From an uncultured Candidatus Saccharibacteria bacterium (GTDB lineage: Bacteria > Patescibacteriota > Minisyncoccia > Phycocordibacterales > PCTT01): 64,000 bases of DNA. The position numbers were made by a program, and so were the translations under genes. Of this stretch, positions 1-63,749 are shown piece after piece. Numbering within the stretch: the stretch's first letter is position 1; every line of letters starts with the position of its first letter. The notes beneath the pieces are model-generated. The model saw only the letters and a program-made list of their open reading frames with translations, was not told the origin of the DNA and made no database searches. The stretch spans positions 46,529 through 110,528 of the forward strand of contig CAZMIM010000002.1 in NCBI GenBank assembly GCA_964566505.1, read 5' to 3'.

Positions 1-44
1 TAGATTTGTGTCATTTCTTCTTTTGTTCCTAGTAGAAACTTCAT
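1..44 (-). CDS. rplC: 50S ribosomal protein L3, N-terminal fragment (gene runs off the window start)
   Basis: The minus-strand ATG at 42-44 translates to MKFLLGTKEEMTQI..., which matches the conserved L3 N-terminus (G-x-K-x-GMTQ). It is absent from the ORF track only because the window edge truncates it. Confidence 0.45.
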   Translation of the reverse strand, partial: MKFLLGTKEEMTQI

Positions 45-141
45 TGAAAATAAAAATATCACAGCCAAGCACTGTGATACACGATAGTGTGTCCAGTGGT
101 CCGAAATGAGTAATTTCGTACATGGCGTATTTGTAGGAGGT

Positions 142-169
142 ACTATACACTATTCCTTTTTTTATGCAA
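142..169 (-). promoter_or_regulatory. sigma70-like promoter upstream of rplC (TTGCAT-N16-TATAGT on the minus strand)
   Basis: Reverse complement reads ttgcat aaaaaaaggaatagtg tatagt, about 95 nt upstream of the rplC ATG. Confidence 0.3.
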
Positions 170-171
170 GC

Positions 172-195
172 AAAAACCGCCCGAAGGCGGTTTTT
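172..195. terminator. rho-independent terminator (bidirectional hairpin)
   Basis: aaaaaccgcccgaaggcggttttt: a GC stem flanked by an A-run and a T-run, between rpsJ and rplC. Confidence 0.55.
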
Positions 196-308
196 GTTAA
201 TCAATAGATTATTATTGATTATATTCTAGTGAAGCGAGCGTACACAAGTTTACTTGTGATACCGAGCGAACGACGAATATATAAATCGTTATAATTGCTA
301 AGCAACAT

Positions 309-332
309 AAAAACCCCTTTAAGGGGTTTTTA
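309..332. terminator. rho-independent terminator immediately downstream of rpsJ
   Basis: aaaacccctttaaggggtttt: a perfect hairpin with flanking A/T runs, 30 nt past the rpsJ stop. Confidence 0.6.
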
Positions 333-361
333 TGAAAAGCTATTGCTTTTTATAACGATTT

Positions 362-700
362 CTACATCATCTTCACATCGATGTTAACACCTGATGGAAG
401 TGATAGGTTTGTAAGTGCATCGATAATCTTTGCACCTGGGTTCACGATATCAATGAGTCGCTTGTGTGTTCGCATCTCAAATTGCTCTCGCGCATCTTTG
501 TGCACAAACGTTGAGCGATTCACTGTGTGCTTTTTGATTTCAGTTGGAAGCGGAACAGGACCTCGCACATGAGCATTAAGCTTCATAGCTGTATCCATAA
601 TCTGCTTCACTGAAGCATCGAGAATCTTGCTGTCGTATGCGCGTACACGCATTCGTAGCAATTGGGTTACTTCTTCTTTTTTCTTAGTAGCTGCGGTCAT
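362..700 (-). CDS. rpsJ: 30S ribosomal protein S10
   Basis: The 112-aa ORF carries the conserved S10 motifs (RIRL.AYD...VRGPVPLPT...HKDAREQFE.RTHKRLIDI). Confidence 0.9.
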   Translation of the reverse strand: MTAATKKKEEVTQLLRMRVRAYDSKILDASVKQIMDTAMKLNAHVRGPVPLPTEIKKHTVNRSTFVHKDAREQFEMRTHKRLIDIVNPGAKIIDALTNLSLPSGVNIDVKMM

Positions 701-728
701 AAATAATTCTTCGAGTGAAACGAGTTAG

Positions 729-777
729 AGATTATTTATCCGCCTTAGTTTTATCTTTGATAAAAGTATGTGCGGAT
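729..777 (-). promoter_or_regulatory. conserved 5'-leader hairpin of the rpsJ transcript (shared with the rplJ leader)
   Basis: attatttatccgcc...gtgcggattctct is a hairpin ATCCGC/GCGGAT sitting just downstream of a TTGTGA-N16-TATTAT promoter. A near-identical block lies at 5105-5150 upstream of rplJ. Confidence 0.45.
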
Positions 778-783
778 TCTCTA

Positions 784-811
784 TAATATTTTACCATTGT
801 TGCCCTCACAA
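784..811 (-). promoter_or_regulatory. sigma70-like promoter for rpsJ (TTGTGA-N16-TATTAT on the minus strand)
   Basis: Read on the reverse complement, the -35 and -10 hexamers are correctly spaced and sit immediately upstream of the leader hairpin. Confidence 0.35.
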
Positions 812-873
812 ATTTTCGCTCCGCGAAACTTAGGAGGGCCTGTAAATTATGGTCGTTTCAACTCCCTAATTTA

Positions 874-2073
874 CTAGGCAACAACCTTTGTTACTACTCC
901 AGCCCCTACAGTCTTACCACCCTCTCGGATAGCAAACCGTTGCTTCTCTTCAAGCGCAACTGGTGCGATAAGTTTTACTTTGAAAGTAATAGTATCACCA
1001 GGCATAACCATCTCTGTTCCATCTGGAAGGGTTACGTCTCCTGTTACGTCTGTTGTTCGAATGTAGAACTGTGGCTTATATCCAGAGAAGAATGGTGTGT
1101 GTCGTCCTCCTTCTTCTTTAGAAAGAATATACACCTCTGCTTCAAACTCTGTGTGAGGATTTACTGAGCCAGTCTTTGCAAGAACCTGTCCTCGTGTAAC
1201 GTCCTCTTTCTTGAGACCTCGTAGAAGAATTCCTGCGTTGTCTCCTGCCATACCTTCTTGAAGTTGTTTGTTGAACATCTCCACTCCAGTAACAGTTGTT
1301 TTCATTGTGTCCTTGATTCCAACAATCTCAATCTCTTCTCCTACCTTTACGATTCCTCGCTCGATACGACCAGTTACTACTGTTCCTCGTCCTTCGATTG
1401 AGAATACGTCCTCGATAGGCATCAAGAATGGCTTATCAGTCTCTCGTTCTGGTGTTGGAATGTACTCGTCGATTGCCTTTGCAAGGTCAAGTACTTTCTG
1501 TGCCCACTCATCGTTGATGTCAGTTGCCTCAAGAGCCTTGAGTGCTGAACCTTTGATGATTGGTGCGTTCTCACCATCGAACTCGTACTTAGAAAGAAGT
1601 TCTCGAATCTCTTCTTCCACCAAGTCTACAAGCTCAGGGTCATCAACCATATCTACCTTGTTGATGAATACAATAATTTTTGGCACACCTACTTGTCGTG
1701 CAAGAAGGATGTGTTCTCGGGTTTGTGGCATCAAACCGTCTGTAGCAGCCACCACAAGTACGGCACCGTCCATCTGCGCGGCACCAGTAATCATGTTTTT
1801 AATGTAGTCTGCGTGACCTGGCGCATCAACGTGCGCGTAGTGTCGTGAAGGTGTTTGGTACTCTACGTGCGCAAGCGCAATAGTAATACCTCGAGCTTTC
1901 TCTTCAGGAGCGTTGTCGATTGCGTCAACACCCTTTCCTTGTGAAGAGTACCCGTCTCCAGCTATGTTAAGTACATTAAGAATAGCTGCAGTAAGTGTGG
2001 TCTTTCCATGGTCAACGTGGCCGATTGTACCTACGTTCACGTGTGGCTTTGACCGATCAAATGCATCTGCCAT
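874..2073 (-). CDS. tuf: elongation factor Tu
   Basis: The 399-aa ORF has the [14 protein letters not shown]1 motif, DCPGH, and NKVD; the match to EF-Tu is full length. Confidence 0.97.
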
Positions 2074-2264
2074 AACTAAACAATTAATTTAATAAAACTG
2101 CCACATAGCAACACGAGAGCGCGCGAGATGCCTCTCGCGTTGCTGTGTGTAATGTGTACCTCGCCTTCTATGAAGGTGTACGCCTAGATTAAAAAGACGC
2201 ACAATCTCGTGTACGTGTCCGTATCATAACAAATATCTTAGGTGCGTCAACACTTTTTATGAAC

Positions 2265-2293
2265 AAAAACCGCCCTATAAAGAGGCGGTTTTT
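2265..2293. terminator. rho-independent terminator downstream of the 2318-3004 gene
   Basis: aaaaaccgccctataaagaggcggttttt. Confidence 0.6.
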
Positions 2294-2317
2294 GAAATCA
2301 AAGGATTTTTGAGTTCC

Positions 2318-3004
2318 TTATCGGTGTGAAATCTCTTTTCGAAGATTTTCAACATAGTCTGCAGCAGCTTTTTGACCACCAAGACCAAATGAAAGTCCGA
2401 ATGCAAGTGCAAGTGCAATTATCACTCCTGTGAATAGAGTTTGGATAAATGCAGCTGCAACACCAAGTTGGAATAGTGCAGCAAGAGCAGCAAATATCCA
2501 AATCGCCCATCGTGTGAGCGCTCCTAGGAAGTTTGCTGACCGCATGTGTGCGGCACGTGCTGAACCAACTACAACATTCTCCATTGCCTCAGCAATAACT
2601 GCGGCAACAAGCATGATAAGTACTGCAACGATTACCTTAGGAAGGAATAGAAGCACTACTTGTTGTAGGAATACATTGACTTGGCTGAGTCCAAGAACAT
2701 CCAATGAAGCAACGAGAAATACTACAATTACGAACCATTTTACGAGTGCTCCTAGGAATGCTCCAGAATCAAGCTTCATACCTGCTCGTGAAACTGCAGA
2801 TTCAAAACCTGCGCTTCGTAGTGCATTATCAAGCTTCAATGAGTGAATGATTTGAGCTACCGCTCGTCCAAGAACAGCACCAATTACCCATCCAAGGATG
2901 AAGATAATGATTGCTACTACTAGAGCTGGAATAAATTCAACTACTCCTACCCATAGATCTTGAAATGAACGTGTCAGAACGTCACTCCATGTATTAATAA
3001 GCAT
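2318..3004 (-). CDS. polytopic membrane protein with conserved-TM-helix repeats (MscS-associated-type TM repeat family, unclear function)
   Basis: The 228-aa ORF has four or more hydrophobic helices and a repeated FLxxVVxxxIxxxL-type pattern. It has no catalytic motifs. Confidence 0.5.
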   Translation of the reverse strand: MLINTWSDVLTRSFQDLWVGVVEFIPALVVAIIIFILGWVIGAVLGRAVAQIIHSLKLDNALRSAGFESAVSRAGMKLDSGAFLGALVKWFVIVVFLVASLDVLGLSQVNVFLQQVVLLFLPKVIVAVLIMLVAAVIAEAMENVVVGSARAAHMRSANFLGALTRWAIWIFAALAALFQLGVAAAFIQTLFTGVIIALALAFGLSFGLGGQKAAADYVENLRKEISHR

Positions 3005-3140
3005 AATATCTAGACATTATTAGTAATGATTTAAAATTACGACCTATTTTGACTATATCGTAATGATATGGGGATATAATAGCACTCTAGAGCAATCTCT
3101 ACACAACACAAAATGTGGATAATCATTAGTCTTGGACTGA

Positions 3141-3165
3141 AAAAGCCCTATTACAAGGGCTTTTT
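3141..3165. terminator. rho-independent terminator
   Basis: aaaagccctattacaagggcttttt, downstream of the 3171-3788 gene. Confidence 0.55.
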
Positions 3166-3170
3166 GACAT

Positions 3171-3788
3171 CTAAATACCTATCTTATTTAGTACTTTCTC
3201 ATGTGGAAACTCAAGAACATCTCGCACAAGCTTGTCATATACATTCATACGATACTGAAACTCATCAGTAGAAAATACTGCATACCTTAGCTCCTTCCCT
3301 ATCTCTGATTCTATCTTTCGAACGACCCTATCGAGAGCACCCTTCTTTATTTTGTCTCCCACAATAAGAAGGTCTACTCGTGAATCTGGAATCTGAAGAA
3401 ATACTCCTGAGATAATAACAAGCTTTGGAGCACCTGCTGGCTTAATACGGTCCAAAACCTCGAGTCTTTCATTTCGTCTTCCTTGTATAAGAAGCTTATG
3501 AAGCCCTGAAAGATACGGAAATGTTTTATCAAGCATGAAGCCATTTGTCTTTTGCTTCTTTGTTACCACTTCTTTTCCTTTCTTTTTCTTTACCTCTTTA
3601 TAAAATACCTTTGGTTTTATAAGACCAACCGATTTAAGCATGTTTACAACACGGCGTACCATATCAGTCTTCACCTGAGTTTTCTTTGAAATCATTTTGA
3701 TGTCATATGCTGTGCCCGGGTTAGACATAAAAAGTCGCATTATCTTCACTCGCGATACTCCACCAAATAGTTTTGCTAGTATTTCCAT
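3171..3788 (-). CDS. hypothetical protein, N-terminal winged-helix-like region; possible DNA-binding protein
   Basis: The 205-aa ORF has a basic N-terminal HTH-like segment (RVKIMRLFMSNPGTAYDIKMISKKTQV...). Its C-terminal half has a DxD-like VDLLIVGD segment, and it is not assignable to a family. Confidence 0.4.
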   Translation of the reverse strand: MEILAKLFGGVSRVKIMRLFMSNPGTAYDIKMISKKTQVKTDMVRRVVNMLKSVGLIKPKVFYKEVKKKKGKEVVTKKQKTNGFMLDKTFPYLSGLHKLLIQGRRNERLEVLDRIKPAGAPKLVIISGVFLQIPDSRVDLLIVGDKIKKGALDRVVRKIESEIGKELRYAVFSTDEFQYRMNVYDKLVRDVLEFPHEKVLNKIGI

Positions 3789-3986
3789 CCCGATAGTGAT
3801 AGGAACCGCTTATTAAGCGTTTCCGAAAATTAGTTTGTAAATTAAGTTTTTCATAAGACTTTAACTTATCCCGATATTTTGAGTATTCAAAAATAACTCA
3901 ATCACTATCGGGACCATATGTTTTGAGTATACACACGAGCACAGTGCTCTAAAAGTAGACAGCGTGTCTATATCAGTTTTTAATTC

Positions 3987-4012
3987 AAAAACCGCCCATT
4001 TGGGCGGTTTTT
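3987..4012. terminator. rho-independent terminator downstream of rplL
   Basis: aaaaaccgcccatttgggcggttttt. Confidence 0.6.
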
Positions 4013-4059
4013 GTCTGGTCGGTGTGTAGTGTAGTTCTCAAATTACCCAACCTACAGGA

Positions 4060-4581
4060 TTATTTAAGATTTACTGTACCTCCTGCTTCCTCAACAGCTG
4101 ACTTAATAGCCTCTGCGTCATCCTTTGATGCTCCTTCCTTGAGTGCAACAGGTGCTCCTTCTACAAGGTCTTTTGCCTCCTTGAGACCAAGACCAAGTGC
4201 AGCCTTAACGGCTTTGATAACACCAATCTTTGAATCACCAAATGATGCAAGCTCTACAGTGAATGAGTCTTTCTCTTCCCCTGCGTCACCTCCTGCACCT
4301 GGTGCAGCTACTGCAACAGCGGCAGCTGATACTCCAAACTTCTTCTCAAGTACTTTTACAAGTGAGTGAAGCTCGAGCACTGACATTGCTTCAATTTTTG
4401 AAACAATCTCTTCAAATTCTTTTGGAATCTCTACCTCTTCCTCTGCCTCTTCTGCAGGAGAGTCATCTGAAGATGTCTCTTCTGTAGCCTCAGCTGGAGC
4501 GGCTTCTTCTTCCTTTGTTTCTTCTGCAGTCTCGGGAGTAGTCTCCTCTACTGCTTCAGTGTTTGTGTTTTCTTCAGTCAT
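4060..4581 (-). CDS. rplL: 50S ribosomal protein L7/L12 with an about 55-aa acidic N-terminal extension
   Basis: The C-terminal 115 aa match the L7/L12 NTD, hinge and CTD ([30 protein letters not shown]...[31 protein letters not shown]). The first ~55 aa are E/T/A-rich low complexity, and no in-frame ATG or GTG lies just before the NTD. Confidence 0.8.
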
Positions 4582-4584
4582 AAT

Positions 4585-5073
4585 TTATGCCTTACTCTCA
4601 GCGATTGCATTGATTACTCGTGCAAAACCGCTAATTGGTGAATTAATAATCTGTACAAATTGTCCTCGTAGAACATCAAGACCTGGAATCTGTGCAATCT
4701 CTGTGATTTCCTCTTTTGAAAGAAGTTTCTTTTCAAATACTCCACCGACTAGTGCAATATTTTCCTTGTACTTCTTTTGGAACTCATAGATTTCGCGAGC
4801 AGAACCAGTTTCATCATCTGAGTATGCAATAGCAATCTCTCCATCAAGTGCTGGTGCCTCTCCTTCAAATGAAGTGTCAGCGAGCGCTCGGTGAATCAAA
4901 CTCTTCTTTGCAACATAGTATGATACTCCGCTATCTCGAAGCGCACCTCGCATAGCAGTTGTGTCATCTACATTAAGTCCGTGAAAGTTCACAAACGCAA
5001 TAGAAGTAGCATTCTCAAATATATCTTTGAGTTTTGAAACAATCTGTTCTTTTTTCTCTTTTGTAATTGCCAT
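4585..5073 (-). CDS. rplJ: 50S ribosomal protein L10
   Basis: The 162-aa ORF aligns with L10 over its full length and sits in the canonical position directly upstream of rplL. Confidence 0.9.
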   Translation of the reverse strand: MAITKEKKEQIVSKLKDIFENATSIAFVNFHGLNVDDTTAMRGALRDSGVSYYVAKKSLIHRALADTSFEGEAPALDGEIAIAYSDDETGSAREIYEFQKKYKENIALVGGVFEKKLLSKEEITEIAQIPGLDVLRGQFVQIINSPISGFARVINAIAESKA

Positions 5074-5104
5074 AAATAATTTCTTAATGAGCGAAGTGAA
5101 TTTA

Positions 5105-5150
5105 GAAATTATTTATCCGCCTAAGTTTCCGAAGGAAAATTTGTGCGGAT
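5105..5150 (-). promoter_or_regulatory. conserved 5'-leader hairpin of the rplJ transcript (second copy of the rpsJ-leader motif)
   Basis: attatttatccgcctaagttt...gtgcggattttct forms the same ATCCGC/GCGGAT hairpin and flanks as 729-777. Confidence 0.45.
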
Positions 5151-5176
5151 TTTCTAAAACACCTTTCACTCGAAAT

Positions 5177-5199
5177 TAAAAAACCTCTCGCAAGAGAGG
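5177..5199 (-). terminator. terminator or attenuator hairpin in the rplJ leader
   Basis: On the minus strand, cctctcttgcgagagg is followed by a T6 run, about 110 nt upstream of the rplJ start. Confidence 0.45.
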
Positions 5200-5295
5200 G
5201 TCAAAGCCATAATATGCAAAAAGCATAGTAGTTCGACCTAACACAGGATTTATATGTCCCGAGGGGTAACCTATGATCTCCGGCTTATGGGACAT

Positions 5296-5324
5296 ACAAT
5301 ACACAAAAGACATGTATAAGTCAA
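5296..5324 (-). promoter_or_regulatory. sigma70-like promoter, TTGACT-N17-TATTGT (minus strand)
   Basis: The same TTGAC(C/T)-N17-TATTGT architecture recurs at 24352-24380 and 24729-24757. It would drive a ~100-nt leader or sRNA that ends at the 5177-5199 hairpin, or reads through into rplJ. Confidence 0.35.
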
Positions 5325-5341
5325 CGACTTCTCTTTAAAAC

Positions 5342-5378
5342 AAAAAAAAAAGCGCGGTTCTCGAGTCGAGAACCGCGC
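5342..5378 (-). terminator. strong rho-independent terminator (27-nt hairpin plus T10) on the minus strand
   Basis: gcgcggttctcgagtcgagaaccgcgc is followed on the minus strand by ten T residues. Confidence 0.65.
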
Positions 5379-5379
5379 C

Positions 5380-5640
5380 GGCTAGCGCAGGGCTAGATTT
5401 TAACCCCAGGAAGCTGAGGCCGACCATCTTGCTTCATCTCTGGGGAGATGGTCATAAGGTGTTGTGAAAAGAATATCAAACATTTGTAGTTCCTGTACCC
5501 CATAGGGTGCTACCTCCTGTTCGATACGCTGACCTGTCTGGTCAGTCTTTCCAGCTCTTTTAATGTACGAATCTATAAATAGTATAGCGCATACAAGATA
5601 TTTGTCAAGCGATTTTATCTTTTCTTTTTTAAAAAACTAA
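5380..5640 (-). ncRNA. candidate structured non-coding RNA (unidentified) ending at the 5342-5378 terminator
   Basis: The 670-nt stretch between rplJ and the SIMPL gene has no ORF of 60 aa or more. It contains several nested stems (ccccag...ctgggg, gaccatct...agatggtc, gctgacc...ggtcagt), and a strong terminator ends it on the minus strand. Confidence 0.2.
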
Positions 5641-5665
5641 AAAACAGCTTTGTTGAGCCATCAAA

Positions 5666-5690
5666 ACGGCTCACTTTTAAAGTGAGCCGT
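5666..5690. terminator. rho-independent terminator downstream of the 5748-6554 gene
   Basis: acggctcacttttaaagtgagccgt; nearly the same hairpin recurs at 63717-63749. Confidence 0.55.
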
Positions 5691-5747
5691 TGAATATACT
5701 TAGTCTTTACCCACGAGCTCCAAGTTCTGAGCTCTGAGCACCAATAC

Positions 5748-6554
5748 TTAACGAATTTGGTATGTAATTGTTACTGTTGAACGAATTGTATTCTCTCCAA
5801 CAGGGATATTTGCTGTCGGATAAGAAACCGCACCGTCCATCATCGCATCTCCTCCATATGCTCGTGATTCTGCATACATCACACCTGGATACCCCCTATC
5901 TTCATAAAAGCTAGCTACTCTTACAATCCTTACACCAAGATCTTTTGCAAGTCGCTTTGCTTTTTCTTCCGCATCTTCAATCGCCTGCTCTCTTGCATCC
6001 GCTTTTAGTGTGTCCTCGTCATCAATTGAGAAATTGATTCCTGAAACATTATCAGCCCCTTCATTTCCTACAAGTGATAGCAAATTACCAACCGCTTCAG
6101 TGTCTCGAACTTTTACTTGTACAGCATGATTTACCTCATATCCGCGAAGCTCTTCTCGTCCTGGCTCACATGGATATGTAATACACTGAATTCTAATGTA
6201 GTCGTATTGTGGGTAAATGTTGTAGCTAAGAGTTTTGATGTCTTTTTCTTCTACATCATTCTCTTTAAGCAAATCAAGAATTGCATTCATTTCTCTTGTA
6301 ACAACCTCTTGTGCTGAAGCAACATCCTTTGCCTCTTCTCGCACAGTGAATGTAAATGTTGCTACATCTGGAATAGCCACCACTTCCCCTTCTCCTGTAA
6401 CACTAATAGTGTTTTGATACGCAAACTCAGAACCGATAAATCGAGTCTCTTTTGCTTCATTAATAAACTTAAATAGCACAAACAACGAAAGAACAGTTAG
6501 GAGCAAAAGTCCCATGTTTACAAGCTGTTTTGTTTTATTCTCTGGAATAATCAT
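5748..6554 (-). CDS. SIMPL-domain (DUF541/YggE-like) secreted or membrane-anchored protein
   Basis: The 268-aa ORF has an N-terminal TM or signal segment, then ISVTGEGEVVAIPDVATFTFTV and the rest of the SIMPL-family pattern. Confidence 0.65.
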   Translation of the reverse strand: MIIPENKTKQLVNMGLLLLTVLSLFVLFKFINEAKETRFIGSEFAYQNTISVTGEGEVVAIPDVATFTFTVREEAKDVASAQEVVTREMNAILDLLKENDVEEKDIKTLSYNIYPQYDYIRIQCITYPCEPGREELRGYEVNHAVQVKVRDTEAVGNLLSLVGNEGADNVSGINFSIDDEDTLKADAREQAIEDAEEKAKRLAKDLGVRIVRVASFYEDRGYPGVMYAESRAYGGDAMMDGAVSYPTANIPVGENTIRSTVTITYQIR

Positions 6555-15048: not shown

Positions 15049-15930
15049 TTACAGCAAAAGTACACCAATTGCTGAGGTAAACAGTGGCATGTGGTTGTGA
15101 TGAATCGGTGGTACATCAGTGCTGGTATACCCAACATGCTCAAGAGGGTTTGGCACACGAAGTGTGTATGGAAGTTGCGATACGAGCGTATTATATAGCG
15201 CGCCTCCCCGAACTATATCTCCCGAAAGGAAAAGAGCACCGACGCTACCTTCTTCAAAAGCCCCCTCAAAAAAACTCAATCTTTCTATTAACTCATGTAT
15301 ACATCGTTTTATATCGGTATAAGAATCGAACGCGCTCCCAAAAGGTATTTGTGAGCGATACAAACACACTCCATTTTTTACAACATAAACATATGAATAC
15401 ACCGGACCAACATCCAAAACTGCGATAGGGCTCTCCTCTCTAGGTAACGCTGAAGAAACTGCCTTATGATGAAGCTCTATTGCAGATGGAGTAATACCAG
15501 CTTCTTCGAAAATGTTTATATACTCTTCCACCATAGTCTCTGGAACCAAAGACACATTAAAGCGAGCTTTGTCTTCACCAATAAATACTGGGGTTATGTC
15601 CATTGCATATGCATCTAGTTGTATCTCTGGATGCTCTTTAGAAAGTGCCTCATATATATAGTGCTCGCTATATTCCCCCACATTTGGTATCTCCACAGTA
15701 ATAACAAGTGCATACGGGTCATAAAGAGAAACCTTTGCATCACGAATACCCGAATCAAGACGAAGGGTCCGTAGTGCATCAAAAAGACCTTCTTTGTCGC
15801 GCACTACACCATGCTCCAAAACTCCTTCAGGCATCTTCATGTCTTGGAAATGAGTAACTATATACGTGCTTCCTTTTGGAGCCAAACACACAAGTCGTAA
15901 TGAATTGTCAGAAATAGAAATACCGTTCAT
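15049..15930 (-). CDS. PilM-like actin-fold type IV pilus assembly protein
   Basis: The 293-aa ORF's N-terminal strand pattern (LRLVCLAPKGSTYIV...) and a central DVGPVYSYVYVVKNG...IPFG segment resemble PilM/FtsA-type sugar-kinase folds. The assignment is tentative. Confidence 0.45.
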   Translation of the reverse strand: MNGISISDNSLRLVCLAPKGSTYIVTHFQDMKMPEGVLEHGVVRDKEGLFDALRTLRLDSGIRDAKVSLYDPYALVITVEIPNVGEYSEHYIYEALSKEHPEIQLDAYAMDITPVFIGEDKARFNVSLVPETMVEEYINIFEEAGITPSAIELHHKAVSSALPREESPIAVLDVGPVYSYVYVVKNGVCLYRSQIPFGSAFDSYTDIKRCIHELIERLSFFEGAFEEGSVGALFLSGDIVRGGALYNTLVSQLPYTLRVPNPLEHVGYTSTDVPPIHHNHMPLFTSAIGVLLL

Positions 15931-20638: not shown

Positions 20639-20708
20639 ACTAAAAGCGTATCACAAAATAGCTCCTTTTATATAGGCGGATAACTCTATTACTGATATAC
20701 TCTGTATT

Positions 20709-20969
20709 ATGATCACAGAAACACTTACAAACGCAGGTACTCTCGCAATGATTTTCTTTGTGTTGTTTATGATTTGGAGTCTCTTCTGGAAGGGTTGGGC
20801 ACTATGGGTCTCAGCTCGAAACGGAAACAAAAAGTGGTTTATTGCACTTTTGATTCTAAACACACTTGGAATACTAGAGATTCTCTACATCTTTTACTTC
20901 TCACGAAAAAAAGGAGAGGATAATAAAGAGGAAGAGAAAGTACTTGAAGTTGAGATAGAAAGAGGATAA
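20709..20969 (+). CDS. small membrane protein with a charged tail (hypothetical)
   Basis: The 86-aa ORF has two hydrophobic helices followed by a K/E-rich tail. It competes with an overlapping minus-strand ORF that looks less gene-like. Confidence 0.3.
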   Translation: MITETLTNAGTLAMIFFVLFMIWSLFWKGWALWVSARNGNKKWFIALLILNTLGILEILYIFYFSRKKGEDNKEEEKVLEVEIERG

Positions 20970-21634: not shown

Positions 21635-21751
21635 GGGATTCGAACTGGAAGAGGGGTCGGGAGAAACTCTAGTTTCTCCCGTGGAGGAAAGCATTGAAAA
21701 CCGAGAGGTTTTTAAGGAGCGAAGCGACGTGAGATTCCCACCCTCTCCGCA
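21635..21751 (+). repeat. tRNA-linked repeat element, copy C (partner tRNA-Ser)
   Basis: This 117-nt element has distal 15 nt (cccaccctctccgca, 21737-21751) that exactly repeat 21568-21582, the tRNA-Ser 3' end. Its proximal GGGATTCGAAC is the reverse complement of the tRNA-Ser T-loop (TTCGAATCCC). Its core, GGGGTCGGGAGAAACTCTAGTTTCTCCCGTGGAGGA, is shared with copies A and B. Confidence 0.65.
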
Positions 21752-24788: not shown

Positions 24789-25121
24789 ATGAATACAGAA
24801 CTTCAATATTCTCCTGAATTGGAAAAAGCTATTGAATCAGGCTCGATGCCGATGGAAACCCTTGAATTGGTACAGGAATTCATAAGGAGCGTACATGCGC
24901 AAAAGAGCGGTTTTGACTGCTTTGACAAGGTTGATCTTGAAAAAATTACTCGTATCTATTCACTGATTGGTTTCGAGGATGAAACCAAAACAGTTGTGGC
25001 GCTACGTGTTGAAATTTTCAATGGAGACATTGCTCATCCGCTTAGTATAGTGACCGTTGGTTTCAATGCCGACATGTCAGGCGTAAACGGATTCTCGCTC
25101 ACAAACAAAGAACTTGTGTAG
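24789..25121 (+). CDS. small hypothetical protein
   Basis: The 110-aa ORF has no recognisable motifs. Confidence 0.35.
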   Translation: MNTELQYSPELEKAIESGSMPMETLELVQEFIRSVHAQKSGFDCFDKVDLEKITRIYSLIGFEDETKTVVALRVEIFNGDIAHPLSIVTVGFNADMSGVNGFSLTNKELV

Positions 25122-25125
25122 CAAC

Positions 25126-25172
25126 AAAAAGCCCGCCAAAGTTTTGTTTTACAAAATTTAGGCGGGCTTTTC
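25126..25172. terminator. bidirectional terminator (agcccgcc...ggcgggct stem)
   Basis: An 8-bp GC stem with A/T-rich flanks lies between the convergent 24789-25121 gene and rpsT. Confidence 0.45.
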
Positions 25173-25436
25173 TTATTGATTGTTTTTGATGAATGCTGAG
25201 AGTCGTGATTTCTTTCGTGCTGCTGTGTTTTTCTTAATGATTCCTCGTTTTGCAGCCTTATCAATTGCTTTGTATGCTTCGTTTAGCTTTTCGTTTGCTT
25301 CCTTTGTCTTTTTGTCTGTTGCAAGAGTCTTTACTTCCTTAACCACGCTATTCATTGCTCGCTTTCTTCGCAGGTTAAAAACGCGCTTCCGATCTGCGCT
25401 TCTGATTGCTTTTTTTGCTCCTTTTGTAATAGCCAT
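25173..25436 (-). CDS. rpsT: 30S ribosomal protein S20
   Basis: The 87-aa basic protein reads MAITKGAKKAIRSADRKRVFNLRRK..., the S20 pattern. Confidence 0.85.
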   Translation of the reverse strand: MAITKGAKKAIRSADRKRVFNLRRKRAMNSVVKEVKTLATDKKTKEANEKLNEAYKAIDKAAKRGIIKKNTAARKKSRLSAFIKNNQ

Positions 25437-46339: not shown

Positions 46340-46362
46340 AAAACCGCCAGAGGCGGTTTTTT
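46337..46362. terminator. bidirectional rho-independent terminator
   Basis: aaaaaaccgccagaggcggtttttt lies between the convergent jag and the 46361-47575 gene. Confidence 0.6.
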
Positions 46363-47575
46363 AGAGCTCTATTCCCCACGCACTTAAGTCTCTTTTGTTT
46401 ATGAAGTAAAGATAATTTTCATCTTCATTGATAATAAGATTTGTTCCATCTATAAATTGAGAAACATCTTCTTGTGGGGTCATGATTTTGTCTGTAGCAA
46501 AACTGTTTATATCAACTTTCCAAAATACGTCATTAAAGAAAAACTCTCCTTTGTACCAATCATCAGGATAGAGTGCTTGTTGTATAAACTCAGGGACAGC
46601 ACAGTATAGTGATTCTTCTTCGAACCACGTACATTTCTCAGGAAGTGTTGTTATTGGAAGCTCCTGTGAGGTGTCTTCTGAGACATTGTACAGATATGTA
46701 TCGAAGCCACCAAAGATGTTTGTTCGTGCATACAAAACAAAAGAGCCTTCTGGTGATACGAGTGTTGTAAGGCCATCTGCAGACAGGATTTTATTAAATG
46801 AGCGGGATGAAACAGAGAAAAAATATAGTGAACCGTGTGTGTTTGCGGTTGGCGCGCTTGTGAATGCTATTTGGTTTGGGCTAAACCACTGCAGGTTCCA
46901 GTTTTTGTAAGAAGAGTTAAAGATATTTCGAGTGTTTCCGGTTGTTTGTGTGTAGTCTATACCAACAACATCCAAAACACGATCTATTAAGTAGAAATAT
47001 TTATTCCCTGCTGGTGATACAGCCACAGAAGAAATGTTGTTTGGTAAAAATTCTGTTTCAACACCGTTCTCATTAAGCACTCCCCACACACTCTCGATAC
47101 TTTCATAATCTGTATTTATATATTGATACAACACAGAGCCATTTTCACCTACAAGCGCTCTTTGAGAGCTTGGTACGGTTGTGTTCGAAACACGTTCTGT
47201 TTGTTTTGAGCTTGTGTCGTGCTCATATATATGACCGGTTGCCCTATTTACTATATATACACCATTTTCAGAAAGTCCAATTCCAGATGATGGTTGGTTG
47301 TGGGCTTTAAATACATTTTTAGCACTTCCACCGCTTACCCCAACAGAAGAAACAGCGCCTGAGTTTGTGCTCTCAAAAGGATCTTGTGTGGACTGGCCAC
47401 CTCCTCTATCGGTGTTCTCAGTTGGTTCTCCAAAAGGAAACAAGTCTACAGAGTCGTCTTGTCCCATTAAATCAATATTGTTATTTCCACCAATTCCACG
47501 AATTACAAAGAACCCCACAAGAGCAAGGATGAGAATGACAAGTATTAGAATTATAAAAAATCGCTTTTGGAACAT
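46361..47575 (-). CDS. membrane-anchored protein with a predicted extracytoplasmic beta-propeller-like domain (last gene of the T4SS-like operon)
   Basis: The start is taken at the internal MFQKRFFIILILVILIL (a TM anchor). The rest is beta-rich with repeated aromatic and Gly patterns. It is translationally coupled to the upstream gene. Confidence 0.4.
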   Translation of the reverse strand: MFQKRFFIILILVILILALVGFFVIRGIGGNNNIDLMGQDDSVDLFPFGEPTENTDRGGGQSTQDPFESTNSGAVSSVGVSGGSAKNVFKAHNQPSSGIGLSENGVYIVNRATGHIYEHDTSSKQTERVSNTTVPSSQRALVGENGSVLYQYINTDYESIESVWGVLNENGVETEFLPNNISSVAVSPAGNKYFYLIDRVLDVVGIDYTQTTGNTRNIFNSSYKNWNLQWFSPNQIAFTSAPTANTHGSLYFFSVSSRSFNKILSADGLTTLVSPEGSFVLYARTNIFGGFDTYLYNVSEDTSQELPITTLPEKCTWFEEESLYCAVPEFIQQALYPDDWYKGEFFFNDVFWKVDINSFATDKIMTPQEDVSQFIDGTNLIINEDENYLYFINKRDLSAWGIEL

Positions 47576-47576
47576 A

Positions 47577-48824
47577 TTAATCGTTATATACGGAAAAGTG
47601 GTCTGCAGAAATATGTGTCCCAAAGAACTTTATTTCTCCACCGCCGGGTATTGATATCCCCTCAAATGCTTCTAGTATTTTATCTGCTCTATTTCTTTCT
47701 CTTATTTCATACACAGCTCTTAACCCAGAATCGCTTGCAGCTTTAAAGAAAGACATCAGATATGCAACTTGTGTGTTTAAATCTGCAGTTTGAACCAGAA
47801 CAGCAGACTGGCCTGTGAAGTTCGCATCAAAACATGTTCCGTTGTAGTGACACTGACTCGCATGATTCCACTCTGGCGGGAAAGCCTCGGTTATTTGCCA
47901 CTGGATTTGCTGCTGACTCAGTGTTGTGTGTAAATTTTTAAGTTTTGGAATAAGATCTTTGTGGATACCCGTGTTCGAATCAGATTTTATAGGAAAATTA
48001 GCGTCTATTTCTTTAAAAATATCCAAACAATTATCTTCTCCTCCTAAGCACATTGCCCCAGAATCACTTGGCGACACAGCTTCATTTCCATCATCATCAA
48101 AATATATACAATCATCATAAACCTGAAAAAAGTTTTCTAGGTCAAGGTTTATAAAATTATTTGCCATAAGCGCGTATTGAGCGGTTTTACATTCTCCTTT
48201 GCTTTCAAAAGGTCCATATAAATCGTTTGTTAAGTGTACTCGAAAGTAAAAACCAGGGCCTCTGAATTGATTTTTGACCAGCGTTCCAAAGTTTGTTGTA
48301 GATGCTGTAGCCGGGCTGATACCCTTAAGTGAAGTGAGGTCTGGGTTTATTGTGTTTAGCAGCAGCACTGAAAGAAGAGCAATACCCAACCCCCAAAGAG
48401 CACGACGAACATCCGAAAGAGCATTGCTCTTCCCAGTAACAGAGCCTTGTGTCATATACTTTGCACCAGCAATAACAATCATAAGCACAGCAAAAGCAGA
48501 CGCGAGCCCGATTGATAGTTTGAGAATACTGTTTACAAAATCAGCAAATGAACGCTCGTCTCCGATTGGTAAAACAGAAACATATCTATTATTTTCTGCG
48601 TCAAAACGAAGTTCCTGGCCTTCTATATTTATAGGGGCTAGTAAAACATAATCAGATGTTCCATTTGGTGTTGTTCCATATATATATGCTTCACATTCAC
48701 TTTGAGAAAGACCCTGGTATAGCATACATTCTTCTATAACCGTTCTTTGTGCGAAAACAAAAAATGGGGTTAGTAGAAAATAAAATACAATAAAACTAAA
48801 TAAGATTTTTTTCATAATATTCAT
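47577..48824 (-). CDS. secreted/membrane protein with an internal VirB2/TrbC-pilin-like two-helix hairpin and a large Cys-rich C-terminal domain
   Basis: A signal peptide is followed by the FADFVNSILKLSIGLASAFAVLMIVIAGAKYMTQG...ALWGLGIALLSVLLLNTI hairpin, which is reminiscent of T4SS pilin subunits. About 250 aa of hydrophilic, Cys-containing domain follow. Confidence 0.4.
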   Translation of the reverse strand: MNIMKKILFSFIVFYFLLTPFFVFAQRTVIEECMLYQGLSQSECEAYIYGTTPNGTSDYVLLAPINIEGQELRFDAENNRYVSVLPIGDERSFADFVNSILKLSIGLASAFAVLMIVIAGAKYMTQGSVTGKSNALSDVRRALWGLGIALLSVLLLNTINPDLTSLKGISPATASTTNFGTLVKNQFRGPGFYFRVHLTNDLYGPFESKGECKTAQYALMANNFINLDLENFFQVYDDCIYFDDDGNEAVSPSDSGAMCLGGEDNCLDIFKEIDANFPIKSDSNTGIHKDLIPKLKNLHTTLSQQQIQWQITEAFPPEWNHASQCHYNGTCFDANFTGQSAVLVQTADLNTQVAYLMSFFKAASDSGLRAVYEIRERNRADKILEAFEGISIPGGGEIKFFGTHISADHFSVYND

Positions 48825-49516
48825 TATATATCACCAAATATTAGACGTAATTGCTGAGAAGCTCTAGAGAAAAGGTTGTTTTTATCACGAGCGGACAAAC
48901 TAATAGAAACAGAGCCTCCTACCCCACCATCTCGCAGAGTTATTTTTGGAGAATTATTATTTATTAAGTTTCTATTGATTTTCCACTCATAATCAACAAA
49001 ATAAGAATCTCTTTCTGAGGCAAAGAAGAACGGATACGCCTCGAGCGTAATTTCTGTGTCTGTTGTGTTTATCTCATCACCCCATGATTGTCCAAAAAGA
49101 GTTCCAAGAGCGGGGTTGTTTTTGTAAATATATATTTCTGGGTCTGATACTTGGAGAGAAATACTTTTATTTGAAATTACAGCGCCGTTCTCATCCACTA
49201 GCTCAAGCGTTACTGTATTATTTCTAGGAGAGCTTGTGAACACAAAAGTATCTTTACCAACACCAGATTGCTCAGCAATACCGTAGTTGTTAAATCTCCA
49301 TCGATAATTTAGTGATTGAGGATTTACCACATCAACAATCGCAACAACACGAACACTAGCGCCTACAGTAATAAGGGGTCGGCCTGTATAAAATGGCGGT
49401 GTATATGTTTCTGCTTCCCAAAGCAGATCAATATCATCTGCGGTCTGTGCACTTACTACATTAGAAAAAGAAAGAAAAACAAAAAGTATTATTGTTATGT
49501 AGAGTATTTTTTTCAT
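48824..49516 (-). CDS. secreted beta-rich protein (hypothetical)
   Basis: A signal peptide (MKKILYITIILFVFLSFSNVVSAQ) precedes an otherwise hydrophilic protein. Its stop overlaps the next start (TAATG). Confidence 0.4.
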   Translation of the reverse strand: MKKILYITIILFVFLSFSNVVSAQTADDIDLLWEAETYTPPFYTGRPLITVGASVRVVAIVDVVNPQSLNYRWRFNNYGIAEQSGVGKDTFVFTSSPRNNTVTLELVDENGAVISNKSISLQVSDPEIYIYKNNPALGTLFGQSWGDEINTTDTEITLEAYPFFFASERDSYFVDYEWKINRNLINNNSPKITLRDGGVGGSVSISLSARDKNNLFSRASQQLRLIFGDI

Positions 49517-49920
49517 TATGCTGCTCTATTTATAAGTCGCTCTTTTCTAGCAACTCGCTCTTGTTGGACACGAGAAAGTGTTTGGTTTGTTTTTTGTGCA
49601 CTTTGTTTCTCAGTATCCTCTTCTCGAGTTGCTTTGATGTTTAGAAATACTACTGTCGTAAGCTCAGGCAAAGCATTCACGATTGGTATAAGACCAACAA
49701 TCATTCCAACAACAGCTCCTTGCGCCATCTTTTTGTTTTGTGTGTATGGTGCGCCATTTATAATGAACCACACAGGAAATATTATCCAGCTCGCGAGCCA
49801 TGTTGCCCAGTTTGCAACAGTCCCTACCGCAAGGGCGGTAAGCAAAAGCTCTAGCAAGTCAATAAAGAGTGCTGTTCCGAGCATAAGCCATTTTGTGATG
49901 TCGCTGATTCGGTAGTCCAT
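49516..49920 (-). CDS. small polytopic membrane protein (hypothetical)
   Basis: The 134-aa ORF has about three TMs and is translationally coupled on both sides. Confidence 0.4.
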   Translation of the reverse strand: MDYRISDITKWLMLGTALFIDLLELLLTALAVGTVANWATWLASWIIFPVWFIINGAPYTQNKKMAQGAVVGMIVGLIPIVNALPELTTVVFLNIKATREEDTEKQSAQKTNQTLSRVQQERVARKERLINRAA

Positions 49921-51737
49921 TATTGTTGTGGGTTAACTGCGTCTTTTTGGTTCTTTATAGCCAAAAGCTGAGACGGGTCAGATGTAATTATTTGATCTTC
50001 TGTGTAAGAAGCAATAATCTTTATAGCCACATGCTTTAGACCTGCAAAGAATATTCCTTCCCCTACCCCAGATTCAAGGAGCAGATACTTTTCTTCGTCA
50101 GTTAGGTTGAAAGTTTTTTGCACTTCTTCAATGGCAGATGGACTTTGTTTTAGTAGTAGCTGTATAGAAGAGTTTGAGATAATAGGCATGCCGTATGGAG
50201 ATTTCAAAAAGTCGCCAACATCTTGTGTAATAGTTGAAAGCCCGAGGTAGTATTTTCGTCCTCGCTTTGCCATTCCAAACAGGAATGATGCAGTATCTTC
50301 TGAGCGCATCATCCACCACGCCTCATCAATTACCAAAAGCCGTTTCTTGAGCTCTTTTCGTACGGCGTTCCATATATAGTGGGTTACGATATGCATCGCT
50401 ACAGGCTTTAGCTCGTCTTCCATATCTCGTACTGAGAACACTACAAATTTCTTATCAATATCTACATTTGAAGCTTTATTAAGGAAGCCCGCCCATGTTC
50501 CTCGAGTGTATTTTGAAAGACGCTGTACAAGCGAGTCTGTTCCCTCTATTCCCGCAAGCACAAGCTCAAAATCAGATAGAAGCGGTGGCGAAATGTCTTT
50601 TAGGTCAGAGTCAGGGGTAATGTCTTTCAGCGCGTATGTTTCAGTTATAGCTTTGTCGATAATAGAATCCTCTTCTGGTGTAAGTCCACCGAGCATGATT
50701 CGCATAAGTCCCACAAGAGACACGATATGTGAACGAAGTACGTCTGCAGGAGACTCATCTTCTCGTGGTTTTGGAAGATCAAATGGGTTTATGTGGTGCT
50801 CTGATGTGAGTGAGATGTTGAAGTACCTACCGCCAGTAGATTCTGCTAGATATTCGTATTCTCTTTCTGGGTCAATAACAATTACATCAGTTCCAAACAT
50901 AAGTGAACGCAAAATCTCAAGCTTGGTAGCGTATGATTTTCCAGAACCAGCTTGCGCAAATGTTACAGAGTTATAGTTTTCCATTGAAAAACGGTCGAAG
51001 AGTATCAGGCTTGAGTTGTGTCGGTTGATTCCATAAAGTATTCCCCTATTTGATGTCAGGTCAAAAGAAATAAATGGGAACAAGCTAGATAGTGGTGATG
51101 AGTTTAGCTTTGAGTGCACTTTTAATGCATCGCTTGATATAGGAAGAACGCTTTTAAAGCCTTGCTCTTGCTGGAAGAGTGCTGGTTTTAGGTAGATAAG
51201 TTTTGATTCCAATACTGACTTAAGCTCTGACTCAATTTTATCGAGCTCATCTGAAGAGTCTCCATAAATAGTTATATAGAGCCCAACATCAAAGATGCGC
51301 TCTCGTGCTTGTTGTAGGTCATCTCGGAGCTGTTCAAGGTCTTGATAAGCTGTATCAAGCATTGGGTCTCGCACGAGTCCTTTTTCGTATCGTGTATTGA
51401 TTTGGCTTTCTACTTCAGCAACTTTTTTCTGGAACTTTTTTAGTATTTGGGCTGTGTCTATTGGGTTTACCACAATAGATACATCAAATTCCCTATCCAT
51501 GTTTACCACAGGAGAAAACCAACTATCAGAAAGAAACCGAGGGTACGAGATTACGAAAAATGTTCGAGCAACCTTGTCCCCCAGACCAAGCTCTTTTGAA
51601 GAAACTTTTAGTGCAGAAGGTGCAATAACATCTTGAAGCTCCAAAACCCCAGCCTCGTATATTTGCTGCGGAAGCACTGGTGTAATAGAAGGGTTTGCAG
51701 ACTCTTTATTCTTTTTTAGAAAATCAAATATGCCCAT
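49920..51737 (-). CDS. virB4: VirB4/TrbE/CagE-family T4SS ATPase, C-terminal ATPase portion
   Basis: The ORF has Walker A (FAQAGSGKSYATK) and Walker B (LLVIDEAWWMM) in a VirB4-type context. Its start follows the N-domain ORF's stop after a 1-nt gap. Confidence 0.8.
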   Translation of the reverse strand: MGIFDFLKKNKESANPSITPVLPQQIYEAGVLELQDVIAPSALKVSSKELGLGDKVARTFFVISYPRFLSDSWFSPVVNMDREFDVSIVVNPIDTAQILKKFQKKVAEVESQINTRYEKGLVRDPMLDTAYQDLEQLRDDLQQARERIFDVGLYITIYGDSSDELDKIESELKSVLESKLIYLKPALFQQEQGFKSVLPISSDALKVHSKLNSSPLSSLFPFISFDLTSNRGILYGINRHNSSLILFDRFSMENYNSVTFAQAGSGKSYATKLEILRSLMFGTDVIVIDPEREYEYLAESTGGRYFNISLTSEHHINPFDLPKPREDESPADVLRSHIVSLVGLMRIMLGGLTPEEDSIIDKAITETYALKDITPDSDLKDISPPLLSDFELVLAGIEGTDSLVQRLSKYTRGTWAGFLNKASNVDIDKKFVVFSVRDMEDELKPVAMHIVTHYIWNAVRKELKKRLLVIDEAWWMMRSEDTASFLFGMAKRGRKYYLGLSTITQDVGDFLKSPYGMPIISNSSIQLLLKQSPSAIEEVQKTFNLTDEEKYLLLESGVGEGIFFAGLKHVAIKIIASYTEDQIITSDPSQLLAIKNQKDAVNPQQ

Positions 51738-51738
51738 A

Positions 51739-52383
51739 TTATTTTAGTGGAATTGGTTTTTCTAGATCTCCAGGGTTGAATATTTTGTAATAAAGTTCGA
51801 TAAGCTCTTCTGTGCCAAGTCGTGCCACTTGTACTCCAGTACGAGAAAGACCTTGCTCTACTATTCCCACCCTTTGCTCAAGCTGTGAAAGGTATTCTTG
51901 GAATGTCTGATCATCATTTTGTGTGCTCTGACCCCCTTTTTTCTTTCCTGGAAGTAGTGATGTGATACCTCCCTTTTGTTTTATAACAGGAGGAGTATAA
52001 GGAACCACAACAAAGAAAGATTTTGACATAATATCTGACCCTTCAGTGAACTTTTTGATGAAGTTTATATATTCCTGGGTCTGAATCTTCATCAAATCAT
52101 TACTTTGTTTTGTTTGGAGCTCTTCTAGAAGCGCTATATACGGTCTGATATCAAGCTCTCGAGATTGGATGAAGAACTGCACAGAGAAATCTAGCGAGTT
52201 TAGGAAGTTTTGAAACTGGAACAATACAGACTCCTGCTCATCACGAGATTTAAGTGCAAGGTTTATAGACGAAGCCATCAAAACAGCCCTAAGCGACTTG
52301 TCTTTAAGTACCACAACGCCGCCTCGAATCTCCTCGATAGGTACAAAATTTTGTGCTGATTGTGCGTTTTGTGTAGTAGCCAT
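51739..52383 (-). CDS. VirB4/TrbE N-terminal domain protein (split from the ATPase portion)
   Basis: FVPIEEIRGGVVVLKDKSLRAVLMASSINLALKSRDEQES matches the CagE_TrbE_VirB N-domain pattern. Its stop at 51739-51741 is immediately followed by the ATG of the ATPase ORF. Confidence 0.55.
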   Translation of the reverse strand: MATTQNAQSAQNFVPIEEIRGGVVVLKDKSLRAVLMASSINLALKSRDEQESVLFQFQNFLNSLDFSVQFFIQSRELDIRPYIALLEELQTKQSNDLMKIQTQEYINFIKKFTEGSDIMSKSFFVVVPYTPPVIKQKGGITSLLPGKKKGGQSTQNDDQTFQEYLSQLEQRVGIVEQGLSRTGVQVARLGTEELIELYYKIFNPGDLEKPIPLK

Positions 52384-52385
52384 AG

Positions 52386-52829: not shown

Positions 52830-52834
52830 AATAA

Positions 52835-53413: not shown

Positions 53414-53416
53414 TTT

Positions 53417-63701: not shown

Positions 63702-63716
63702 TAAGAATTCAGTAAA

Positions 63717-63749
63717 AGCAACGGCTCACTTTGAAAGTGAGCCGTTGCT
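63717..63749. terminator. bidirectional rho-independent terminator
   Basis: agcaacggctcactttgaaagtgagccgttgct has the same hairpin core as 5666-5690. Confidence 0.55.

Follow-up and report, generated by a model that had tools for sequence, protein, structure and literature searches.

The window analysed here, a stretch of 64,000 nucleotides from an uncultured Patescibacteria (CPR) genome with a G+C content of 39%, carries near-identical blocks 5' of two ribosomal-protein genes, rpsJ (S10) and rplJ (L10). We favour, with moderate confidence, the view that a small palindromic repeat of the MITE/ERIC/Correia/REP-like type, specific to this lineage, has its core in the shared block and lies upstream of both genes. 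This palindromic repeat is best filed as a new one of MITE/ERIC/Correia-like kind, not as a leader common to the S10 and L10 operons, and it may modulate the two mRNAs. For the present it counts as an ordinary type of element whose host is unusual: Patescibacteria have tiny genomes, yet lineage-specific palindromic insertions are found here beside essential ribosomal-protein genes. If the element modulates mRNA processing or access to the start codon, it would show how a repeat can rewire the expression of ribosomal proteins in a genome that is largely leaderless. The case also carries a caution, namely that similarity between paralogous leaders is easily over-read as evidence of a shared regulator.

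The genes concerned lie on the minus strand in the order SIMPL-family gene, rplJ, rplL, two unrelated genes, tuf and rpsJ, and this order is kept in relatives. The next-best relatives show 64-72% identity in L10 and 85-91% in S10; named ones include Candidatus Campbellbacteria and Parcubacteria. Two terminators (310-333 and 170-195) stand 3' of rpsJ, which therefore does not seem to be joined to rplC-rplD in the window.

362..700, minus strand: rpsJ (S10), from its ORF and Pfam
2073..874, minus strand: tuf, stop codon 876-874, from Pfam
5073..4585, minus strand: rplJ (L10), followed by rplL
4581..4060, minus strand: rplL, directly 3' of rplJ

Few genes of the window have a Shine-Dalgarno sequence, and many have a TAnAAT-like hexamer 6-8 nt 5' of the start codon (for example at 15049-15930, 20709, 21013, 23381, 25558, 28846, 33731 and 45088). 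The position of these hexamers suggests that leaderless mRNAs may be widespread in this genome. The rpsJ genes of the relatives L005 and L007 begin with TATAAT-N7-ATG.

Elsewhere in the window, the presence of dnaA, dnaN, rnpA and yidC at 41.6-45.9 kb suggests a replication origin region. A minus-strand cluster at 46361-56014 looks like a type IV secretion or conjugation-like locus; it includes a TraG/VirB4-like P-loop ATPase (49920-51737), a PrgI-family protein (52386-52829), a weak match to a T4SS pilin (47577-48824) and several large unannotated ORFs. The 659-aa ORF at 9809-11788 is a repeated-domain surface protein, within which two (partly three) tandem 294-nt repeats, 80% identical, span 10331-10918.

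Core hairpins and inverted-repeat ends

The near-identical blocks that a sequence-only reading had reported 5' of rpsJ and rplJ are real, and the strings it quoted stand on the plus strand where it placed them. The 15-mer ATTATTTATCCGCCT occurs only at 731 and 5108 in the window against 0.16 occurrences expected, and none of 100 shuffles held two matches to it. The two copies, A before rpsJ and B before rplJ, are 85% identical over 65 columns, and local alignment of the two leaders scores 55-61, compared with a maximum of 25 among shuffles. Both copies have the same orientation and the same distance to the AUG. The elements of the two units are as follows.

701..725, minus strand: ACUCGUUUCACUCGAAGAAUUAUUU, the tail or right inverted-repeat end of the tuf-rpsJ unit, running up to the rpsJ AUG (700)
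702..875, minus strand: tuf-rpsJ unit, the whole 173-nt spacer (MFE -49.8 kcal/mol, z -5.9)
726..783, minus strand: copy A, the core hairpin before rpsJ (covariance model R1, 90.7 bits), with basal stem UAGAGA/UCUCUA, 3' internal loop AAAUAA, mid stem AUCCGC/GCGGAU and apical stem UUUUAUC/GAUAAAA
784..799, minus strand: C-A linker, 16 nt, with -10-like TGGTAAAAT and TATTAT
800..849, plus strand: copy C, an inverted core directly after the tuf stop (E 0.002 with the two-copy model)
851..875, minus strand: UAAAUUAGGGAGUUGAAACGACC, the left inverted-repeat end of the tuf-rpsJ unit, directly against the tuf stop (876-874)
5078..5185, minus strand: B unit, ~105 nt, one long imperfect palindrome (MFE -33.8 kcal/mol, z -5.8)
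5101..5158, minus strand: copy B, the core hairpin before rplJ (covariance model, 85.7 bits), with basal stem UUUAGAAA/UUUCUAAA, internal loop and mid stem as in copy A, and apical stem UUUCC/GGAAA

Copies A and B share one fold, in which the basal stem is followed by an internal loop of 6 nt on the 3' side (AAAUAA), the mid stem (AAUCCGC/GCGGAU(U)) and the apical stem, with an A bulge and 1x1 loops around two A-U pairs between the mid and apical stems. Fold energies are -17.6 kcal/mol for A and -16.3 kcal/mol for B (z -5.3 and -4.3), and no shuffle among 200 was equally stable. Every stem difference between the two is compensated (G-C to A-U in the basal stem; U-A to A-U; U-A to C-G), and the apical stems (UUUUAUC/GAUAAAA and UUUCC/GGAAA) keep their pairing with wholly different sequences. 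The hairpin proposed for both leaders exists and is structurally maintained.

The similarity continues beyond the cores into terminal inverted repeats, which enclose a short non-coding unit in both cases and pair with each other in the MFE folds. The tuf-rpsJ unit adopts a closed Y-shaped fold whose outer stem encloses two hairpins, the reverse complement of C and A; in this stem, the tuf stop region pairs with the region just 5' of the rpsJ AUG, 701-725 with 851-875. The left end of the spacer matches the reverse complement of the A tail (P 0.014). The B unit begins at the terminator U-tract of the L10 leader and stops 5 nt short of the rplJ AUG; TTCGAGTGAAA in its left arm (5174-5164) is the A tail in reverse complement. 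To the left of the rplJ core stands TAATTTCGAGTGAAAGGTGTT, and the tail of which it is an inverted copy, AACTCGTTTCACTCGAAGAATTA, stands 3' of the rpsJ core; aligned as an inverted copy, the left flank of B reads TAAT--TTCGAGTGAAAGGTGTT against TAATTCTTCGAGTGAAACGAGTT in the A tail (P<0.001 against shuffles). AATT is readable at both junctions of both units, in AT-rich DNA and with boundaries set post hoc, and a target-site duplication (possibly AATT) is indistinguishable from the AT-rich background at both units. No transposase or RAYT-like gene was found among the window ORFs scanned.

A covariance model built from A and B and run unfiltered over the window found copy C, which lies head to head with A at a distance of 16 nt. 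Its mid stem, GCCCUC/GAGGGC (802-807/834-839), is fully compensated, and its interior, CACAAAUUUUC..GAAACUUAGG (CACAAAUUUUCGC-UCC-GCGAAACUUAGG), is nearly identical to that of copy B. Across the three paralogous copies all 15 pairs are kept, 7 of them with double changes, and none is broken. Covariation of this kind would be expected equally of palindromic repeats and of functional RNAs. With the three-copy model a fourth core was found:

25129..25177, plus strand: copy D, a related core (E ~4e-6, three-copy model)

Copy D has GCCCGC/GCGGGC and CAAAG..UUUAG pairings, an AU-rich apical stem, and an A-run and a U-run as flanks; it is a predicted bidirectional terminator between an ORF at 24789-25121 (plus strand) and rpsT at 25436..25173 (minus strand). 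A hairpin with an immediate U-tract, as in an intrinsic terminator, is found only in D; on their sense strand A, B and C lack such a tract, and the terminator scan did not call them. The element had been described as leader-specific, a description that the inverted core after the tuf stop and the terminator of rpsT do not support. In the 64 kb, two full units and four related cores are seen. The cores adjoin translation genes in all four cases (rpsJ, tuf, rplJ and rpsT); with 3 of 53 intergenic regions bearing cores and 9 of 53 touching translation genes, the post hoc probability is ~0.004.

Other repeats are present in the window. A ~59-nt repeat, 90% identical, at 8999-9057, 14815-14873 and 21652-21679, adjoins tRNA-His, tRNA-Arg and tRNA-Ser; it contains GGGGAAACUAGAGUUUCCCC and a T-arm-like GTTCGATTCC, and may be a tRNA-derived fragment or the remnant of an integration site. 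On the plus strand at 20674-20688, AGGCGGATAA-CTCTA resembles the 3' arm of the core plus the tail, without a partner arm, and is either a half-copy or a chance match; it lies ~20 nt 5' of TGATATACT-N7-ATG, the start of a small membrane ORF (20709-20969). Terminators form near-identical families, with AACCCCGTCTGTGTGTCTACACAGACGGGGTT at 9765-9801 and 11857-11893, AACGGCTCAC..GTGAGCCGTT at 5665-5709 and 63702-63746 (also in L001 and L101), and AAAAACCGCC..GGCGGTTTTT at 171-204 and 3980-4013.

Relatives and the separate rplJ leader

The leader had been called conserved, and a lack of conservation in related genomes had been named in advance as evidence against the proposal. None of the relatives examined (L001, L003, L005, L006, L007/9, L010, L100, L101 and 80 metagenome loci) has the element upstream of rpsJ or rplJ, and a pattern scan of GTDB species genomes gave no copy of it. 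Judged by the standards set beforehand, this absence and the cores found elsewhere weaken the regulatory-motif reading. The three-copy covariance model returned nothing below E 0.5 in 613 kb from 88 related loci, and its unfiltered application to L100 and L101 gave no match, bringing the relatives covered to ~90 loci and ~630 kb. Where both leaders are available (L003, L007 and L009), those of rplJ and rpsJ share nothing. The exact pattern ATCCGCACA-N10-35-AGGCGGATAAAT had three chance matches in 185,579 GTDB genomes (one per species), one in a peptidase-like coding ORF of Falkowbacteria and two in unrelated phyla, none with the apical stem; a looser pattern had only six chance matches in IMG/VR. 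Rfam gave no match to the hairpins over the whole window at gathering thresholds. At E<=10 on 1-6000, 690-880, 5060-5340 and 5335-5615 it matched neither the hairpins nor the L10 leader, and its hits were terminator-driven. Nothing relevant was found in the literature on CPR ribosomal leaders and palindromic repeats.

Orthologous sites in relatives are "empty" or occupied by something else. The tuf-rpsJ spacer measures 9 nt in L100 and 16 nt in L010, and the gap from terminator to ATG before rplJ is ~20 nt in L001; in L007 the tuf-rpsJ spacer is 62 nt long and holds unrelated CGCAGAC repeats. In the nearest relatives by S10 (91% and 88%), the place is taken by CGCAGAT repeats, an unrelated hairpin and TATAAT-N7-ATG. 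Upstream of rplJ, L101 (the closest L10 relative, at 72%) has a GIY-YIG ORF, while other hairpins fill ~230 nt in L007 and ATCTGCG repeats are found in L003. One hairpin upstream of rplJ in L007 (CCGCC-TGCT-GGCGG, then AAATAAT..TTCTAAA) was considered as a homologue and rejected, as the covariance model gave it no score. Unrelated insertions occupy the same two sites in L003, L007, L025, L036 and L066, besides the GIY-YIG ORF of L101, and to judge from these comparisons the sites upstream of rpsJ and rplJ appear to be permissive for insertions.

The gap between the L10 leader and rplJ is a recurrent insertion site (L101 2048-2287, L007 5270-5497, L025, L036 and L066), and what it receives includes the GIY-YIG ORF, runs of hairpins and AACCTATAACCTA-type repeats. 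Relatives also carry direct heptamers, CGCAGAT/CGCAGAC or their complement, with a 10-11 nt period and often beside a GC-rich hairpin. These look like a protein-binding DNA motif or another repeat family, and lie around the rplJ and rpsJ starts as follows.

L003, 6735-6770 and 6930-7000: CGCAGAT/CGCAGAC repeats
L005, 30-85 and 445-520: CGCAGAT/CGCAGAC repeats
L006, 700-790: CGCAGAT/CGCAGAC repeats
L007, 9945-9975: CGCAGAT/CGCAGAC repeats

The proposal that the element stands in place of the known L10 and S10 leaders does not hold for rplJ, which retains a conserved leader of its own farther upstream.

5178..5310, minus strand: conserved L10-type leader (AAGCCGGAGAUCAUAGG...CCUGUGUUAGGUCGAAC...GGCUU), outside the repeat and upstream of the B unit

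This leader ends in a terminator (5199-5184) with a U-tract. The same L10-type leader precedes rplJ in L001 (2186-2292), L007 (5136-5272) and L101 (1885-1995), and a version with GACAG..GAGGUC..GGUCGA precedes it in most of 82 Patescibacteria loci, as established by direct reading and a crude motif count. A six-sequence structural alignment of L10 leaders from distant loci was of poor quality and was dropped. In Bacillus subtilis, the L10(L12)4 autoregulatory leader is of the attenuation type. By analogy, the upstream rplJ RNA would be an L10(L12)4 autoregulatory leader of this type, because it has a terminator and a resemblance, judged by eye against the E. coli sequence, to 23S helix 42. It receives no score from Rfam's L10_leader model under lax filters either, and the rplJ leader of Patescibacteria may be an uncatalogued L10 leader variant.

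The only good promoter of rplJ, TTGACT-17-TATTGT (5324..5296), lies upstream of this leader. Since the promoter and the leader with its terminator come before it, hairpin B is an additional module that separates the L10 leader from the rplJ start, and it does not form the mRNA's 5' end as had been supposed. At rpsJ, a promoter-like site, TTGTGA-17-TATTAT (811..783), would place the transcription start near the hairpin base; such matches near rpsJ are no commoner than in shuffles, and the supposed 5'-end position is not borne out there either. The claim of a similar ribosome-binding context is not supported: that context is largely the right terminal repeat of the unit (AAGAA(A)TTA, then TTTATG), and another portion is shared with two genes that have no hairpin, rplS, which is preceded by the same AATTATTTAT(A)TG-type context, and rpsT, preceded by a similar one. 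As for a lineage-specific motif under a common regulator, the motif does occur in one lineage only, before both genes and with the same orientation and distance; a common regulator is neither needed nor indicated.

A stand-alone unit of ~230 nt lies farther upstream on the minus strand at 5342-5608. It has a near-consensus promoter, TTGACA-16-TATACT (5608-5581), and a 13-bp terminator (5379-5351), folds at -82.5 kcal/mol (z -4.9) and has no Rfam match. A 36-codon ORF (5503..5393) follows AGGAGG, and L001 and L007 have no such unit at this place. An sRNA, a small protein or a combination of the two could be encoded here.

Possible effects and rival explanations

On the palindromic-repeat reading, one ~105-nt unit would have landed between the L10-leader terminator and the rplJ start codon, and a composite unit, with two inverted cores head to head closed by inverted-repeat ends, would fill the tuf-rpsJ spacer. 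The spacer with the unit must be transcribed for rplJ to be expressed, and probably also for rpsJ; transcription is likely to read through from tuf into rpsJ, since core C is no terminator. Lying inside transcribed spacers, the units would hence be copied into the rplJL and (tuf-)rpsJ mRNAs, where they would form long stable stem-loops beside the AUG. Their likely effect would be generic and structural, as a double-stranded target for RNase III type processing, as an obstacle to exonucleases, or as a partial cover over the start region, which is AU-rich and has no Shine-Dalgarno sequence. A closed basal stem would leave the start open, and pairing of AUAAAUAAUYUCU with AGA(A)AUUAUUUAU would mask the AUG, a competition that could tune translation. 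The alternative folds of A have energies of -18.5 kcal/mol (AUG free) and -17.5 kcal/mol (AUG paired), and for B the AUG-paired form is the MFE structure, at -19.2 kcal/mol. Binding of a shared autoregulatory protein is not likely as the mechanism; a separate upstream leader would provide for L10 autoregulation.

An unlikely alternative, although one with several observations behind it, is that the element is a lineage-specific RNA exapted for cis-regulation of rpsJ and rplJL. AUAAAUAAUYUCU would pair either with the 5' basal strand, leaving the AUG free, or with AGA(A)AUUAUUUAU(G), masking it, and the balance of this bistable leader would be set by a common protein, temperature or an RNase; the sequence-only proposal is at its strongest in this form. 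Such a leader agrees with the two near-isoenergetic conformers in both leaders, with a complement to the start region that is perfect over 13 nt in B and extends over 9+3 nt (plus GCGG/CCGC) in A, and with the shared orientation, AUG distance and fully compensated stems. A long structured leader is also unusual here, where these genes have no Shine-Dalgarno sequence and most others look leaderless, and every core adjoins translation genes. However, the element is conserved in no relative examined, rplJ has its own regulator site upstream, and no rRNA mimicry was found by eye in a window without an rRNA gene. The inverted copy C, too, has this complement to the start region (GUAAAUUA...UAAUUUAC) as part of the palindrome of the unit; the complement is thus explained by the architecture of the element and is no argument by itself for an evolved switch. 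Moreover, where the basal stem changes from G-C to A-U with compensation, the alternative helix is lost at that position.

The cores might instead derive from a family of terminator hairpins, as copies of a D-like terminator acting as insulators, which we consider quite improbable. Read on the plus strand, A and B would stop antisense transcription (GCGGAUUUUCU, GCGGAUUCUCUAUAAUAUUUU), and C on the minus strand would protect the tuf 3' end. D, to all appearance a bona fide bidirectional terminator, has the same core architecture; the terminators of this genome are near-identical repeats (the D17, I1 and I8 pairs are examples), AAAACCGCC occurs 8 times in intergenic DNA, and UUUUCU comes after B on the plus strand. 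Yet A, B and C have neither a sense-strand U-tract nor a call from the terminator scan, no plus-strand gene or promoter feeds A or B, and insulation leaves both the inverted-repeat ends and the similarity up to the AUG unexplained. A role at the DNA level, as a duplicated promoter or operator or as a protein site with inverted ATCCGC/GCGGAT half-sites, is very improbable. It could draw on AATAAT, a 5/6 match to the -10 box that follows the 3' arm in both copies, on the recurrence of GGCGGATAA ~25 nt upstream of the TGATATACT-N7-ATG gene at 20675, and on the CGCAGAT heptamers with a 10-11 bp period at the same sites in relatives, which resemble protein-binding DNA. Against it, the half-site spacing differs by 4-5 bp between A and B, and the intervening sequence varies so as to keep a hairpin and not a fixed sequence. 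A promoter in the shared block, with AATAAT as its -10, was rejected: no -35 stands at the right distance, and B lies downstream of a leader and terminator, where a promoter of its own is not needed. The BoxA consensus (NusB-NusE) is GCUCUUUAACAA-like; for a BoxA/nut-like site the resemblance (UCUCUAAC, UUUCUAAA) is weak, and the segment is the 3' strand of the basal stem.

As a separate matter, the perfect palindrome CTATATGTACAGTTAACTGTACAT occurs in two copies (12573-12596 and 13080-13103) that flank a Trp-repressor-like/HTH ORF (12635-13051) and are probably its operators.

Several counterpoints bear on the palindromic-repeat reading. The window shows just two full units and two further cores and, among the ORFs scanned, no transposase or RAYT-like gene, and A and B agree in orientation and in spacing to the AUG. 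The translation-gene flanks (~0.004, post hoc) are a hint in favour of selection or function over random insertion, and the perfect compensation of the stems could be a sign of functional RNA. There is a slim chance that a selfish palindrome has been co-opted as a common post-transcriptional module of rpsJ and rplJL, and perhaps of the tuf and rpsT 3' ends. If so, a bistable start mask or a processing stem would couple S10/NusE with L10-L12 expression, in a genome whose genes mostly appear to be leaderless and without Shine-Dalgarno sequences.

Likeness to known systems

Structured RNA in the 5' UTR near the starts of rplJ and rpsJ is a feature that the element has in common with the L10 leader (RF00557) and the L4-bound S10 leader. 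Unlike these, it has no Rfam match, no conservation among relatives and no demonstrated rRNA mimicry, and rpsJ here precedes terminators and not rplC-rplD (L4) as in the S10 leader system. The cores share a GC-rich lower stem and an AU-rich top with intrinsic (Rho-independent) terminators, and core D is one; A, B and C differ in having no U-tract on the sense strand.

REP/BIME sequences are imperfect palindromes, often arranged as inverted pairs with a short linker, that stabilise upstream mRNA segments. The window elements are likewise imperfect palindromes in transcribed intergenic DNA, and C and A form an inverted pair with a short linker. In contrast to REP/BIME, the window cores are longer, with internal loops and additional inverted-repeat ends; they have no conserved GTAG-type head, the window has no RAYT gene, and four cores are seen instead of hundreds.

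Correia/NEMIS in Neisseria, ERIC/IRU in enterobacteria and RUP/BOX in pneumococci are palindromic repeats of the MITE type that are co-transcribed with genes. The window units differ from Correia, ERIC and RUP in that they have no sequence similarity to them, only two full units are seen in 64 kb, no target-site duplication or window transposase is demonstrable, and all copies lie by translation genes. They resemble them in being small (~105-173 nt), non-coding and AT-rich, in having inverted-repeat ends and a hairpin fold that spans the whole unit, and in lying within transcribed spacers next to genes, in either orientation, present or absent among related genomes.
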